Shown one piece after another: positions 11,911 to 57,605 of a stretch of 64,000 nt of DNA; the stretch's first letter is position 1; each line of letters starts with the position of its first letter. Under the pieces are notes generated by a model. That model had not been told where the DNA came from, searched no databases, and saw nothing but the letters and a program-made list of their open reading frames with translations. The DNA lies in the NCBI GenBank assembly GCA_026770705.1, contig JANJGN010000007.1, positions 88,536,001-88,600,000 on the forward strand. The letters are read 5' to 3'. This DNA comes from Isurus oxyrinchus (lineage: Eukaryota). A program made the position numbers and the translations under genes.

Positions 11911-11996
11911 TCTGTTCATTAGGACTGTAAAATTCTCAAGCAGCTAGATGAGCTTGGCAATCATTTTGTGGCTGTGCAAGCATTGGTGTACTCTAA

Positions 11997-12787
11997 AATA
12001 AAGCAAAATGCTGCAGATGCTGGAAATCTGAAACAAAAACAAAAATAGCTGGAAAAACTCAGCAGTCTGACAGCATCTGTGGTCTCCTTTACATTGGAGA
12101 GACCAAATGCAGACTGGGTGACCGTTTTGCGGAACACCTTCGGTCTGTCTGCAAGCATTACCCAGACCTCCCTGTTGCTTGCCATTTCAACACACCACCC
12201 TGCTCTCATGCCCACATGTCCCTCCTTGGCCTGCTGCAATGTTCCAGTGAAGCTCAACGCAAACTGGAGGAACAGCACCTCATCATCCGACTAGGCACTT
12301 TACAGCCTTCCAGACTTAATATTGAGTTCAACAACTTCAGATCCTGAACTCTCTCCTCCATCCCCACCCCCTTTCCGATCCCCCTTTCTCCAATAATTTT
12401 TTAAAAAAGTATATTTTTTCTTCTCCCACCTATTTTAAAATCCACCTTTTAGCCCATTTTGATCCCTTCCCCCCCACCCCACCCCCACTAAGGCCATCTG
12501 CCACTTGCTTGTCCTGCTTGCTACCCTTAATGTCGCCATTAGCACATTCCTTTGATAATATCACCACTGTCAACACCCCTTTGTCCTTTTGTCTATGACA
12601 TCTTTAGCAATCTCTTCTTTGCCCCCACCTATCCAGCTCTGCCTGTCCCACCCCCCTCTACCAGTTTATGTTTCACCTCATTTCTCTATTTCCTTAGTCC
12701 TGATGAGTCATTTGGACTCGAAATGTCAACTGTGTTCCTCTCTGCAGATGCTGTCAGACCTGCTGAGTTTTTCTATTTTTGTTTTTG
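11997..12787 (+). mobile_element. Penelope-like element with an inverted terminal copy at its 5' end
   Basis: Inverted end at 11997-12080, GIY-YIG fragment, hammerhead-like CTGATGAGTC..GACTCGAAATGTCAACT at about 12696-12731; 14-bp TSD TTGGT(G/A)TACTCTAA at 11983-11996 and 12788-12801. Confidence 0.88.
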
Positions 12788-13000
12788 TTGGTATACTCTA
12801 ATGTGGTCCTGTACAACAATAGGAACAAGTTGCATGTATATAACACTTTTAATGTAGAAAAACAGGCAAAATCAAAAGAATGGCACCAGACCATAGAAGA
12901 AAGTATTCAAAGGGATGACCAAAGACCAAAGTCCAAGTTAGGAAAGCAAAAGCAAGGGGAAAATAAGACTAAAACTGAAAGCTGCAAAGAGAAAAGGAAA

Positions 13001-13743
13001 GGTTTCCTCTACATTGGAGAGACCAAACGTAAACTGGGCGACTGCTTTGCAGAACACCCGCGGTCTGTCCGCAAGAATGACCCAAATCTCCCTGTCGCTT
13101 GCCATTTTAACACTCCACCCTGCTCTCTTGCCCACATGTCTGTCCTTGGCTTGCTGCATTGTTCCAGTGAAGCCCAACGCAAACTGGAGGAACAACACCT
13201 CATCTTCCGACTAGGCACTTTACAGCCTTCCGGACTGAATATTGAATTCAACAACTTTAGGTCGTGAGCTCCCTCCCCCATCCCCACCCCCTTTCTGTTT
13301 CCCCCTTCCTTTTTTTTCCAATAAATTATAAAGATTTTCTTTTTCCCACCTATTTCCATTATGCAAAACAACACCCCCACTAGAGCTATACCTTGAGTGC
13401 CCTACCATCCATTCTTAATTAGCACATTCGTTTAGATAATATCACCAACTTTAACTTTAACACCTGTGTGTTCTATTGTACTATTGTCGTTGACATCTTT
13501 TGATGATCTGCTTCTATCACTGCTTGTATGTCCATACAACCACACCCCTCCCCACCTCTCTCTCTCTCTCTATCTCTCTGCCCCCCACACACACACCTTA
13601 AACCAGCTTATATTTCAACTCTTTCTTGGACTCACACTCAAGTTCTGTCGAAGGGTCATGAGGACTCGAAACGTCAACTCTTTTCTTCTCCGCCGATGCT
13701 GCCAGACCTGCTGAGTTTTTCCAGATAATTCTGTTTTTGTTTT
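13001..13743 (+). mobile_element. Young 5'-truncated Penelope-like element
   Basis: GFLYIGETKRKLGDCFAEH...EFNNFRS; 11-bp TSD AGAAAAGGAAA at 12990-13000 and 13744-13754; hammerhead-like motif at 13641-13679. Confidence 0.92.
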
Positions 13744-13754
13744 AGAAAAGGAAA

Positions 13755-28533: not shown

Positions 28534-28637
28534 AAATAAAAACAGGAAATGCTGGAAAAACTCAGCAAGTCTGTTACCATCTGTGGAGAGGGAAAGAGAG
28601 TTAACGTTTCAGGTCAAGTTGACCTTTTATCAGAACT
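28534..28637 (-). mobile_element. PLE terminal-repeat fragment with hammerhead-like motif
   Basis: Reverse strand agttCTGATAAaaggtc..gacctGAAACGTTaact. Confidence 0.7.
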
Positions 28638-29307
28638 TTCTGCCATGCTGTTGACTCCACAGTTGCTTACTTGCTGATTTAATGGTCTGTGGGAAGCTCT
28701 CTTGCTTAAAAGAAGCTTTGCAACATAATCTAAACCCACTGTTTATGAAGCATTTCAGCTCTCGTATTTGCCAATGTCTTTTTTTATTTTCCCCATGCTT
28801 TTTGGGGCATTTTTATATTTGCTCCCAACCTTCACCGATATACATTTTCACAGGCCGTTCTTCCGTACCTTGCCCAAGTGGCCGTTCAGTGTGAGGCTAC
28901 GTAGTTAGTGTTAGCAAATTACCCAGCTTCACAGTCAGACCCCATCGTGCCCTCAGGTTCACTGCACAAATATAATTCCAGCAGGAACCTGCTGAAACAG
29001 GCTGCTGTACTCTTAGTAATAGGACCTGAGTTCCATTGTGATGAATCTACTAAAGATCAGAACGACTGGCTATGACCCTGAGATCTATCTGGTCTGTGAC
29101 GCTACTACTCACTGCTTTAACCAGTTCAGCCATGAAGGAAGCCCCATTTTATATCATTTATTTTGACCTGGAAAACAAAGCATCTGTATTTTTGTGAATT
29201 TTCAGTTATTCCTTCACTGTAGCGTTAATTTTGTCCACATCCTAATGCAACATTTTACAGCTCCTACCATTTATTCAGTTTTATTGATACAAATGTAATG
29301 CCAACTT

Positions 29308-40450: not shown

Positions 40451-41144
40451 ATGCACAAGCACACACATCAGAAGTAAGAAAGAATATATGAGTAAGTCCT
40501 TTGCTTGTCCATGAGACATAGATTGTGGAACGTTATGGCCGTTGAAGTTAGATGGTTTCTTGTAAAATTCTGGAGTTGACTTTGTTCAGGTCTGCACTTT
40601 GTTGAAGACACTCTGGCTTCAGAGGTAGAGAGGGAGAAAGAACAAGATCTTTCTTGCTGTTTCTCAGCAGAGTTTCTTAGATGACTGTCATGTTTCTTTT
40701 CCTGCCTTTCCATCTTTCTCTGCCTGGCAGAGCAAATTTTAAACTAATTTTTGTATATTCCTGGAAGGGAATTCAATTAATATGTCTTGCATCCATTGTT
40801 GTAGTTACCAGGTTTTTGCTCTTTCATCTCAGAAACCTTTTGACACATTTTTGAGATATAAATCAACATGAGATGGGGTTGTTTTGTCCTCCACTGGGGG
40901 TTTGGAGTGTCTGGTGGGGTGTAACTGCTGGGTAGCAGTTAACATTGTCTTCACAGATTTAGAGTGAATTAAAAGCCCAGCACTTTGCATTTTCAGGGCC
41001 TTCTTTTCAAGATTCCCTGTTTGAAGTAGGCCTTGACACCCCACCTTGGATGTGAATTCCATGTAACATCTTAAAGCAGTTCTACAGTGCAATCCTTATA
41101 GGAACTTTCCGGAAAAGTGGTCAACCTACAATATCAGACATCAG

Positions 41145-41385
41145 AGTTGAAAACAAAGAAAACTGCGGATGCTGGAAATCTAAAACAAAAACAGAATTAC
41201 CTGGAAAAACTCAGTAGGTCTGGCAGCATCGGCGGAGAAGAAAAGAGTTGACGTTTCGAGTCCTCATGACCCTTCGACAGAACTTCTGTCGAAGGGTCAT
41301 GAGGACTCGAAACGTCAACTCTTTTCTTCTCCGCCGATGCTGCCAGACCTACTGAGTTTTTCCAGGTAATTCTGTTTTTGTTTTT
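41145..41385. mobile_element. Very young fold-back PLE-end insertion (perfect 101-bp palindrome)
   Basis: Arms 41182-41282 and 41284-41384, 1-nt spacer; 15-bp perfect TSD AATATCAGACATCAG at 41130-41144 and 41386-41400. Confidence 0.95.
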
Positions 41386-41827
41386 AATATCAGACATCAG
41401 GTGACTGCTGGTATTCACCTTTGGTCAGTGTCTTTTGTTGTATTTTAAAAAAAAGCAGGTCCTCTTTAAACAATTTTACATGTCTTTGGTTAGCTGGTGA
41501 AGTTGTAGGTAGTTCTCACTCAGTCACTGTTTCCTGTCAATGTGACACAATGCCTGGTGAATGCAGAATCAAGCTCGGTCATGATGGACCCAGTGACTTT
41601 TCAGGATTAGAAAGGGGGAACGGTAATTAAATGAGTTTCTAGGACTCTGCTAGATAGAAGGGAAGGCAAAAGTTGGGGGAAAAATAAGAATAGTTACAAT
41701 AATGCAGCATTTCCTTAAACTACTTCTTCCTAAAGGTCTATAATGAAACCCAGGGCTTGAATCAGATGAGGTACACACTAGGTTCCACAGGTCTATCATC
41801 TCATGAGCTTTATTGTTGTGTTTACAG

Positions 41828-41956
41828 AGGTGCTGCCGCTTGTTCAGTTCTATTTGGAAGAAGGGATTATGGATGAGGAAGCAGTGGCCCTGATTGATCG
41901 TGAGGTGCCCAGGACAGAACTGAAAAAGGACGGGTGGCAAGAAAAGAACATTGGCG
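41828..41956 (+). CDS. IFT122: IFT122 internal coding exon (EVLPLVQFYLEEGIMDEEAVALIDREVPRTELKKDGWQEKNIG)
   Basis: Acceptor tttacag ends at 41827; phase-1 join G+AG = Glu; the exon ends before GTATCCATTT at 41957. Confidence 0.92.
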
Positions 41957-50969: not shown

Positions 50970-51068
50970 GTTCATTCTCAGCTACCATGTTAACCAATAA
51001 GTGCTTATCGAGGAAGAATGAATACAAAACTATTGGACCTTGACAATGTAATTACTGATACATTGACA
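50970..51068 (-). mobile_element. Copia 5' LTR (50988-51068, 81 bp) plus tRNA-iMet-type PBS (50970-50987), inverted relative to pol
   Basis: Minus strand TGTCAATG...GGTTAACA followed directly by TGGTAGCTGAGAATG; about 85% identical by eye to 54233-54314. Confidence 0.82.
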
Positions 51069-51250
51069 CTGGATACTGCAAAGGCTATGGGCCCTGACAA
51101 TATTCCGGCAATGGTACTGAAGACTTGTGATCCAGAACTTGCCGCACCCCTAGCCAAGCTGTTCCAGCACAGCTACAACACTGGCATCTACCTGGTATTG
51201 TGGAAAATTGCCCAGGTATGTCCTGTAAACAGAAAGCTGGACAAATCCAT
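51069..51250 (+). mobile_element. LINE fragment (DTAKAMGPDNIPAMVLKTC...), continuation of the LINE at 54315-54760 in the opposite orientation
   Basis: ORF 51018-51275 peptide; the same family reads KKMLKALDTAKATGPDNIP uninterrupted at 57319-57609. Confidence 0.8.
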
Positions 51251-51259
51251 TGTCGATAA

Positions 51260-54200
51260 GGTCATGGAGAAATAGGTAGCAACAGGATTATGAACATCAA
51301 CCAAATTTCTGACAGATATTGGTGAGGAATTTGCGAATGAGGAATTTTGAGATGTGTGAAAATTTGAATATCATAGTTATGCACACTATGACTGTGAGCC
51401 CGTTCAGTAATAGTTGTGCAAGAGAAATCATGCAGTGATAGACGACATGTAGCATAAAATATTGACTGATCAACCAGATTGCAAATTGCAAATGGCACTG
51501 GTATGGGCAGTATATGCAAAGAACTCTTTGTAAATTGGGGGTGCACACTCTGTATGAATTGGTGTATGGAAGGAATTCAAAGTTGCATTTGGTGTTATCA
51601 GATGCTCCCCCTGCTCTAGAAGGGACTAGCATTAGCTCCACTTATTCTGCTCATCTGAACATGTGGGCAGAAAAGCTTTCATCAAAGCTGAAGTTTTGGA
51701 GAAAATGCGGCGAGCCTTACAGCACTGCATAAGACCATCAGGAATACGGTTTAGCCAAGCAGACATGATATATTACAAAAGAGAAGGCCAGAAAGAGTGG
51801 AAAGTCCCTGGCAAAATGATAGGCAGTGATGAAAAAGTAATAATTGTACAATACGGAATCAAACTGTTAGGGTACATTCTTCGAGGTTAATTGGCACTGA
51901 CTATACCTTTACAGGTTCTGACCAGGACATAGAAAGTGAAGAGGCGCCATACACTTCACGTACAAATTTATTGGGCAGTTGTGAGGAGCAGACTACGGTG
52001 GATAGAGGGATAACTGATGATGAGTAAAGTAACACTGAGGCACAGGATAAGGCTATTTATCCAAAAGGGCAACTACCCAAAGTAGGAACAAAGGTAACAT
52101 ACATGCCAGAAGAGACCAGTGTGTGGAAGGATGTCACCATCATAGGGAGAGCAGGAAAGGCTACTGGGAAATACAAACATTAGCTAAATTTGCAGGATGA
52201 AGGACAAGAGACAAGACCCATGGATTGGCAAAACGAGGTGAAGATGTAGAAGGCCAGAAAATGCGGTGTGAGTTCTGACAGTGGACCAGAAAGTGGTCAT
52301 GAGCCCTGGAAAAGATCTCAGACTTGTGAAAGGAATTCTAATCACATGCAGGAAAGATCAAACAGCAGTGGCCCAGAAAGAGAGAGGATTGTGAGTAGCT
52401 TGACAAGAACGAGGACTACAGAACTAGCTGGGAATGTCAATAGAAGTAGAAGCCCTTATGATTGAGAGGTTTTAGGAGCTGCTAATAAATTGGAAAATAA
52501 ACTGATAAACGAAGCCAAACAAAAAGAGTTGGACAGTTGGAAAGAATTTGGGGTATGCACTGATATACCAGACAGGGGTATGCTCGTATACAGCCAGCTT
52601 CATCACACAGGTGGATATATACAGAAAAAGTTATTCCGGACAGCATGTACAATGTTAAAGCTAGACTGGTAGCTCGAGGTTTTGAAGGAAGAGTTGGGAT
52701 CAAGATGTCAGGGTGGGCTCTCCTACTGCAGGGAAAGTGAGCTTGAAGATTTTTAAAACTATTTTAGCATCATATTCCTGAGAGTTCAGATTAATTGATA
52801 AAAAAGCTGCATTTTTTGCAGGGTGAGAAATTTCAAAGGGAAGTATTTTTCAAACAACCTAAAGAAGCTGGTGGTATAAAAAGAAAGTTGTAGAAATTAA
52901 ACAAGTGTGTTTATAGGTGAATGATGCATCAGGATTATGGTATTTTTCTGTGAGGTCTGTCCTGTTGAAACCAGATTGCGTTAAGTTAAAGGCAGACCCT
53001 GCGATGTTCTACTGGCATCACAAGGAGAAACAAGCAGGGACCTTTATCATGCATGTTGATGATTTCCTGTGGGGAGGTTCTGTAGAATTTGAGCAATAGG
53101 TGACCGATAAAGTAAAGAAGGAATTTAAGTTTGGAAGTCAGCCTTCAGGGGCCTTTAAATACAGAGGTTTATATATTAAGCAGAGCAAGTCAGGAGTAAC
53201 ATTGAATCAACAATCTTATTTAGAAAATGTCAATCATATCCCAATAAATCGGGTCAGATCCTCACAAAAAGAGAATCCTGCATTCAAAGAAAAAAACAGA
53301 CAAATTAAGAAATTTGGTTTGACAATTGAACTGGTTGTGCACTCAGACTAGACCTGATGTCAGTTATATCATATTGGCACTGAGCACTATGATGAAACGT
53401 GCTACATCTGAGGAAGTCCTGAGAGCAAAGAAATAAATTAAATTTGGAGAAATGCATACTCAAGTTTCTAGCCATGGGTGATCCAGAAGATATGAAGTTA
53501 GTCATTTTTAGCGATGCTCCAATGCCAAATTTCCAGATGGATTCTCTAGCACGGCAGAGTTATCATATTCTTGGTGGGAAAGAATGATCAAAGTTGTCCA
53601 TTGGCCTGGGAGGCCATGAAAATAAAAAGGGTAGTTAAAAGCACCATAGCTGATGAAACACTCGCTTCTACCAAGGCCATAGGTATGGGGCTGTACTTAT
53701 TCAATATACTGACGGAAATACTATACAAGGGGCAATGTGAGAAAAGTTCACCCATAGAATGCTATGTGGATAACCATTCTCTTTCAGATAATGAGAAGGG
53801 AGATCGCTAAGATACGATGTGTTGACACAAGTCACCAACTATCAGATTGTTTTGCGAAAAGAAATGCCTGCTCCAAGAAACGTTTTGGAAGAGGGGTGCA
53901 AAATGCAAAAGTGATTTTTTTTGCTTTGTAATGTTTATATAAATGGTAAAGGGAATGTAGAATCTATAATGTGAAAATTGGTGACTTTGTTTCCTGGAAA
54001 AACTCAACAGGTCTGACAGCATCTGTGGAGAGAGAAACAGGTGATGTTTCGAGTCCGTGTGACCCTTCTTCAGAGCTACCAGACCTGCTGAGTTTTTCCA
54101 GCATTTTATGTGTTTGTTTCAGACTTCCAGCATCTGCAGTATTTTGCTTTTAATTTTGTTTTCTTTTGTTTAATTTGAAAGATGTTCTTGAATTTTTCAA

Positions 54201-55939: not shown

Positions 55940-57605
55940 GGCCAGCATTTATTGCCCATCCCTAGTTGCCCTTGAGAAGATGGTGGTGAGCTGCCTTCTT
56001 GAACCGCTGCAGTCCATGTGGTATAGGTAGACCCACAGTGCTGTTAGGAAGGGAGTTCCAGGATTTTGACCCAGTGACAGTGAAGGAACGACGATATATT
56101 TCCAAGTCAGGATAGTGAGTGGCTTGGAGGGGAACTTGCATGTGGTGCTGTTTGCGTGTATCTCCTGCCCTTGTCCTTTTAGATGGTAGCGGTTGTGGGT
56201 CTGGAAGGTGCTGCCTAAGGAGCCTTGATGAGATTCTGCAGTGCAACTTCTAGATGGTACACACTGCTGCTACTGTGCATTGAAGATGCAGGGAGTGAAT
56301 GTTAGTGGAAAGGGTGCCAATCAAGTAGGCTGCTTTGTCCTGGGTGGTGTCAAGCTTCTTGAGTGTTGCTGGAGCTGCACTCATCCAGGCATATGGAGAG
56401 TATTCCATCACACTCCTGACTTGTGCCTTGTAGATGGTGGACAGACTTTGGGGAATCAGGAGGTGAGTTACTCGCCGCAGAATCCCTAGCCTCTGACTAC
56501 TGTAGCCACAGTATTTATATGGCTAGTCCAGTTCAGTTTCTGGTCAATGGTAACCTCAGAATGTTGTTAATGGGGGATTCAGTGATGGTAATGCCATTGA
56601 ATGTCAAGGGGCGATGGTTAGATTCTCTCTTTTTGGAGATGGTCATTGCCTGACACTTGTGTGGTGCGAATGTTACTTGCCACTTGTTAGCCCAAGCCTG
56701 GATATTGTCCAGGTTTGCTGCATTTGAACATGGACTGCTTCAGTATCTGAGGAGTCACAAATGGTGCTGAACATTGTGCAATCATCAGCAAACATCCCCA
56801 CTTCTGACCTTATGATAGAAGGAAGGTCATTAATGAAGCAGCTGAAGATAATTGGGCCTAGGACACTACCCTGAGGAACTCCTGCAGTGATGCCCTGAAA
56901 CTGAGATGATTGACCTCCAACAACCACAACCATCTTCCTTGTGCTAGATATGACTCCAACCAGCAGAAATTATTTCCTCTGATTCCCATTGACTCCAGTT
57001 TTGCTAGAGCTCTTTGATGCCATACTTGGTCAAATGCTGCCTTGGTGTAAAGTGCTGTCACTCTCACCTCACCTCTCAAGTTCAGATCTTTTGTCCATGT
57101 TTGAAACAAGGCTGTAATGAGGTCAGAAGCTGAGTGACCCTGGCGGAACACAAACCGAGCATTAGTGAGCAGGTTATTGCTAAGCAAATGCACTATTAAT
57201 GACTCTTTCCATCACTTTACTGATGACCTGTTGTAGACTGATGGGTCGGTAATTGGCTAGGTTGGATTTGTCCTGCTTTTTTTTTTACAGGATATACCTG
57301 GGTAATTTTCCACATTGCTCAGCAGATGCCAATGTTGTAGCTGTAGTAGGACAGCTTGGCTAGGGGCACGGCAATTTCTGGTGCACAAGTCTTCAGTACT
57401 ATTGTTGGAATATTGTCAGGCCCTGTAGCCTTTGCAGTATCCAGTGCCTTCAGCATTTTCTTGATATCACCTGCAGTGAATCGAATTGGCTGAAGACTGG
57501 CATCTGTGATGCTGGGGTCCTCCGGAGGAGGCCAAGTTGAATCATCCATTCGGCACTTCTGGCTGATGATTGTTGCGAATGCTTCAGCCTCATCTTTTGC
57601 AACAA
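55940..57605 (-). mobile_element. LINE ORF2 plus 3' end (second CR1/L2-group family)
   Basis: GVPQGSVLGPIIFSCFINDLP..MFADDCT; KAAFDQVWH; GPDNIPTIVLKTCAPE. Confidence 0.9.

Follow-up and report, generated by a model that had tools for sequence, protein, structure and literature searches.

The window analysed here, a 64,000-nt stretch of the Isurus oxyrinchus genome (contig JANJGN010000007.1, positions 88,536,001 to 88,600,000), carries a perfect palindrome. Its two 101-bp arms, at 41182-41282 (minus strand) and 41284-41384 (plus strand), are exact reverse complements by extension from a single C at 41283, as a preliminary description of this DNA had reported. A scan of the window for inverted repeats with spacers of 0-30 nt and arms of at least 12 nt gave this palindrome as each of its best 15 results. 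The structure is enclosed by a target site duplication (TSD). Its 15-mer occupies 41130-41144 and has a single second occurrence, at 41386-41400; neither side allows the match to be extended. The earlier reading as a retro-insertion with a true 15-bp TSD was right. However, the insert between the duplications measures 241 bp and is asymmetric, not the 203 bp of the two arms and their centre. The preliminary description had overlooked a 37-nt element-derived tail on the left arm only (41145-41181, minus strand) and an extra T at 41385, between the right arm and its TSD, for which the left arm is not the template. The left (tailed) arm is the 3' part of a pseudo-LTR (pLTR) and starts at a hammerhead motif; the right arm is untailed. 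The C at the head-to-head junction is templated from the left arm and lies inside the junction hotspot of the family. Alternatively, the left arm may be taken to continue for 2 nt more, in which case there is an overlap of TT.

The exon downstream of the insertion (approximately 41828-41956, plus strand, with AG/GT boundaries placed by eye) matched residues 1091-1119 of human IFT122 in a PDB sequence search (E 2e-5). A Pfam search of the 42-aa exon matched no family. Further upstream, as far as about 14.9 kb of the window, this strand carries eight matches to TPR_IFT122. Because the downstream exon matches IFT122 and the upstream TPR_IFT122 exons share its strand, we place the insertion in an intron of IFT122, about 430 nt ahead of the exon, which is the position given previously. 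A sister copy at 13640-13746 (plus strand, 98% identity) belongs to a longer truncated copy, of which it forms the 3' end without a tail; it carries G where both palindrome arms carry A. By eye, the 3' UTR upstream of it resembles that of L016, the full-length copy described below. Other relatives in the window are mostly older, with 73-85% identity. Those of 75-85% identity within IFT122 introns lie at 986-1192, 11995-12077 with 12707-12789, and 53990-54153, and some are in an opposed arrangement. A separate 169-nt inverted pair (51067-51235 and 57278-57446; 85% complementary and 6 kb apart) probably consists of dispersed repeats.

We identify the palindrome unit, with near certainty, as a head-to-head stub of an abundant Penelope-like element (PLE), lacking both the ORF and the body of the element. 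The full-length copy L016 (C1:464800-469800) has the arrangement pLTR-ORF-pLTR and an uninterrupted 926-aa frame. This single ORF codes for a reverse transcriptase (RT) followed by a C-terminal GIY-YIG domain, as in EN+ PLEs. The RVT_1 match (E 7e-8) is above the cut-off; the GIY-YIG match at 829-863 (E 9e-4, 19.9 bits) is under the curated cut-off of 22.6 bits. In accordance with the same group, the ORF lies between direct pseudo-LTRs, at 759-899 and 4099-4203 in L016 and in the same arrangement in L017. Over 141 nt, the long arm of the palindrome matches the first pLTR of L016 plus the tail at 99.3% identity, and the tail corresponds in L016 to the stretch from the pLTR's end to where the ORF begins. 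Another copy, L028 (6386-9160), has domains similar to those of L016 and is 97% identical to it, and the frames of the two span 925-926 aa. With two full-length open copies, the family may still be active, judging from sequence. RNA folding of the 5' region of L016 gave nothing unusual (z 0.69). Within L016 800-890, base pairing is predicted between the tail and the stretch that directly follows the hammerhead downstream, which would leave the upstream preferred end in a loop.

The preliminary description had called for a genome-wide count of similar fold-backs. A head-to-head junction pattern with a spacer of 0-12 nt returned 3,779 exact genome matches versus none for the reversed control, so that the palindrome is one of thousands. 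A 30-mer from the hammerhead region had 61,831 exact matches. We profiled 51 short loci, namely the window locus and the first 50 junctions listed, which all lie on contig C1 and are not a random sample. The long arm ends at 128-148 nt in 46 of these loci. The short arm ends at 94-107 nt in 35, clustering at about 97-103 within a full range of 36-107. TSDs were 12-16 bp long in 41 of the 51 loci (mode 14) and at least 11 bp in 43, after the removal of one spurious match (L042, discarded as element-derived); the seven loci without a TSD of at least 11 bp were excluded from TSD-based comparison. Among the 43 loci whose TSD is credible, 35 show a difference in arm length of 28-45 nt. We also compiled 24 longer inverted loci from the listed matches to the common 30-mer and to a marker 28-mer, with arms from about 125 nt to 3 kb. 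The window palindrome is the short end of this continuous size series, and it shows the features of PLE inverted insertions: an adjacent, inverted, 5'-truncated copy in head-to-head orientation, a one-sided tail and a single TSD. Locus L068, initially taken as one inverted pair, proved to be two separate short palindromes. Short palindromic stubs were seen in clusters (three within 4.3 kb at L018, two within 5.7 kb at L068), and some of their junctions lie inside the hammerhead.

Thousands of units of about 230-240 bp with TSDs could also come from a palindromic mini-element, non-autonomous and of a MITE-like or retrozyme-like kind, that is mobilised as a whole, which implies fixed ends and a fixed centre. 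Instead, there were 27 distinct centre sequences among the 51 loci, and the arm ends were variable; the diversity of centres therefore indicates that the palindrome is rebuilt at every insertion. Furthermore, the size series runs continuously to arms of about 3 kb, all of which match the autonomous PLE, and the units are not tandem like retrozymes. A mobile mini-element is thus largely refuted, and we consider it barely tenable.

We also considered whether the palindrome at the window locus is a fold-back artefact of the assembly. We saw no read that spans the locus, and among the contigs of four sequencing runs, whose mapping was swamped by the repeat, no listed piece spanned the palindrome stretch. 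However, the exact 15-bp TSD, the one-sided tail and the extra T follow the rule of the family, and diverged arms in 28 of the 51 sister loci are incompatible with read chimeras. An artefact is therefore very improbable. A contig from a related organism fits 40679-41129 (452 of 520 letters) and ends at the base immediately preceding the left TSD, which is what an empty site would look like, as seen from the left flank that this contig covers.

The same comparison of arms bears on age. The preliminary description had argued that near spacer-less palindromes are unstable and that the insertion is hence very recent. This argument is unsupported, since the arms were identical in only 23 of the 51 loci and had diverged in the others. 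Loci L040, L056 and L057 have the same one-base centre as the window palindrome, yet their arms differ at 4-5 sites. L019 (689-2951) is a near-perfect 2.3-kb palindrome with 1.15-kb arms that are 98.6% identical, a 1-nt centre and no central deletion. For the window palindrome, identity over 101 bp means no more than that the arms diverge by less than 2.9%. The insertion is young relative to the family, but not necessarily of very recent origin. Palindrome instability is not evident in the Isurus oxyrinchus genome examined, where near spacer-less palindromes of 100 bp persist by the thousand.

The A shared by both arms, where the sister copy has G, had been taken as a sign that the arms came from one template by fold-back, or that they were homogenised. 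A single source for the arms is upheld by our analyses, whereas the step from this variant to fold-back or homogenisation is not. The 28-mer carrying the variant has 2,064 exact genome matches. It is a subfamily marker and therefore by itself no proof of either process. The rare haplotype was found in head-to-head pairs in 24 per 100 listed matches, versus 23 per 100 for the common 30-mer. Across the 43 loci that are informative at the marker site (eight were not), 33 were G/G, 10 were A/A and none was discordant. Shared minor alleles between arms numbered 32, compared with 4.3 +/- 2.1 (maximum 13) in 2,000 shuffles. Both arms derive from one source lineage, and homogenisation is not needed to account for this. 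Hairpin-mediated gene conversion after insertion would agree with the identical arms in the window and with minor alleles that are shared between arms yet confined to one locus (L008, L009, L010, L034 and L062). However, 68 discordant sites persist over the 51 loci, the shared alleles are mostly recurrent subfamily markers, and youth accounts for the identity. We consider such homogenisation highly improbable.

The geometry of the arms suggests how the stubs could arise. Each arm reads as a cDNA directed inward from the TSD. This layout would follow from a staggered cut of 14 nt whose two 3' overhangs both act as primers. We propose that the endonuclease would cut the target with a stagger of about 14 nt, leaving 3' overhangs, and that reverse transcription would begin from each overhang within a U-rich tract of the RNA, at one of two positions that lie about 100 and about 137 nt from its start. 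Both cDNAs would extend to the RNA 5' end just ahead of the hammerhead core and would then be joined there end to end. The product would be a dead stub, assembled at the target site instead of moving as a special mobile palindrome. We favour double priming as the origin of the inverted stub with moderate confidence, and hold the combined reading, identity as a PLE stub together with this mechanism, to be fairly probable.

The main competitor is fold-back or self-priming. Here a single cDNA (or an antisense template) would fold onto itself and be copied into a hairpin, one arm of which then keeps the tail through the action of the endonuclease or of repair. It would explain why the arms always share source variants. 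In the 24 longer loci, the 5' ends of the tailed and untailed arms correlate (rho 0.79), and in some loci they are equal, as in L019; this, too, agrees with fold-back, as do the symmetric non-native letters at the junction of L042. Self-priming was also inferred from junction palindromes in PMC3846280. However, in 12 of the longer loci it is the untailed arm that extends further 5', by 10 nt or more; in seven it is the tailed arm, and in five the two end within 9 nt of each other. In the first of these three groups, neither arm contains the other. The untailed arm there was therefore not simply copied from the tailed cDNA, which makes simple fold-back of a tailed copy a poor fit. The 12:7 split is itself not significant (p 0.36), and the seven loci with a longer tailed arm led us to reject the idea that this arm trails in every case. 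Breakage of containment would also be expected from a full hairpin intermediate trimmed on either arm, or from a central deletion after insertion.

The centres and ends of the short loci also bear on fold-back. Only 0-1 unpaired base lies at the centre in 34 of the 51, mostly without a native inverted repeat that could act as primer, which suits end-to-end joining of cDNAs better than intramolecular snap-back priming. The clustering of short-arm ends also argues against fold-back, as these arms do not run to the end of the cDNA. The overlap of the TSD with the element at the short-arm end averaged 1.29 nt, compared with 0.57 nt when shuffled (n=31/43), and such microhomology fits double priming and fold-back alike. 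Considering these points together, we regard fold-back as a real but rather unlikely alternative. Four loci have short arms that stop early (73-81 nt; L009, L043, L045 and L052). The element sequence at the stop is similar to their TSD, which suggests that the target overhang paired with the element there.

Under double priming, the junction would mark the start of the template. Throughout the 51 loci, the starts of the arms fall 0-7 nt upstream of the hammerhead core, taken at TTCTG, although the apparent width of this hotspot is constrained by the 12-nt spacer limit of the junction search. Judging from the junctions, the hotspot probably corresponds to the RNA 5' end. The predicted ribozyme cut was rejected as the hotspot, as junctions there numbered 204, 18-fold rarer than the 3,779; they exist nonetheless as a minor class. 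These centre near the predicted cut, many on a 4-nt palindrome of stem III, and could reflect cleaved RNA templates or local microhomology. Untemplated junction letters were present in 14 of the 51 loci, and 36 of the 49 letters are C or G. We considered this as a cap signature and discarded the idea, since extra GG/CC was also seen by eye in junctions away from the hotspot.

The hammerhead itself is a motif with the architecture of the minimal type-I form. By inspection against the description of minimal hammerhead ribozymes (min-HHRs) in PMC4209133, one motif lies in the sense of the IFT122 pre-mRNA at 41284-41321 (plus strand), with a predicted cut after 41316, and the junction clips the 5' strand of its stem I. 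A mirror copy is at 41245-41285 (minus strand). An Rfam search at the gathering threshold found no match anywhere in the window, hammerheads included. The young, abundant family carries U at hammerhead core position 6 (window 41286-41292), whereas three older window copies (3771, 28534-28638 and 53990-54077) carry A. The young family thus seems to have expanded with a non-canonical hammerhead core. According to PMC4209133, minimal hammerheads cleave weakly and depend on dimers. The hairpin suggested earlier for the IFT122 pre-mRNA is predicted in silico, where the plus strand folds over 100 bp (-224.8 kcal/mol, z -26.8). In this fold the sense hammerhead would be paired, and thousands of other such hairpins would exist. 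The sequestration of the hammerhead suggested earlier would probably be of no consequence, as the motif is minimal, of the dimer type, and carries U at core position 6.

The palindrome is therefore real yet ordinary, and its layout has already been published for PLEs. As one of thousands, the single locus matters little. The stub population, by contrast, bears on how PLEs form their inverted repeats and tails, a question named as open in PMC8557442, and it yields concrete predictions: the RNA start, two priming sites and a 14-nt stagger. In reactions in vitro, an anole PLE cleaves and extends both strands, is predicted to act as a dimer and starts RT at two sites bounding the tail (PMC11167929). 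The stubs could be the in vivo record of such a reaction: a dimeric RT-endonuclease would start synthesis from both target strands, at two sites of RNA that comes from one source, and would copy as far as the RNA start; we give this an even chance. If true, the mirror point maps the transcription start, and the length of the tail gives the spacing of the two priming sites. Double priming, if correct, would also explain the puzzle of inverted pLTRs, in a family expanded with a non-canonical hammerhead core. Our literature search, which covered titles and the openings of abstracts and included few subscription papers, found no test of double priming on genomic PLE junctions. Intronic stubs would be a genome-wide source of double-stranded RNA.

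In L1 twin priming, one RNA serves both target strands: the second strand acts as a primer too, and an inversion within a single TSD results, with two segments that do not overlap. The Isurus arms, unlike this product, overlap fully, and the mechanism may nevertheless resemble twin priming.

Published PLE insertions contain an inverted 5'-truncated copy, a palindrome at the junction, a one-sided tail of 30-40 bp and a single TSD (PMC3846280, PMC8557442 and PMC2377424). The window stub shares the head-to-head arrangement, palindrome, tail and TSD with Pen2a_Av of Adineta vaga (PMC3846280), with the general PLE scheme (PMC8557442) and with Penelope of D. virilis (PMC2377424). It differs from these published insertions in having no ORF body and only about 100 + 137 nt of element sequence. 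The Isurus family also has longer TSDs (14-15 bp, compared with 8-10 in the insertions described) and thousands of copies with a tight junction hotspot. As to the formation of inverted structures, self-priming is favoured in PMC3846280, and the process is called undefined in PMC8557442.

The hammerhead motif resembles the min-HHRs of metazoan PLEs (PMC4209133) in the extra base between 9 and 10.1, the G10.1-C11.1 pair, the palindromic 15.2-16.2 and the absence of loop 3, but the young Isurus family differs from them by the U at core position 6. Dual hammerhead motifs 100-700 bp apart on opposite strands are noted in the same source. Non-LTR retrozymes, as outlined in bioRxiv 10.64898/2026.07.22.740005, are likewise non-coding, carry a type-I hammerhead and derive from PLE pLTRs; they form tandem head-to-tail arrays, whereas the Isurus stub is an inverted pair within a TSD. 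PAc (Poseidon of Anolis carolinensis), described in PMC11167929, also has a hammerhead at the pLTR-ORF junction and a tail between two preferred ends, and we count its in vitro reaction, in which both DNA strands are cleaved and extended, as a further likeness. In PAc, RT starts 111-118 nt inside the ORF at an AC-rich stem loop, whereas the Isurus ends lie in U-rich tracts before the ORF.
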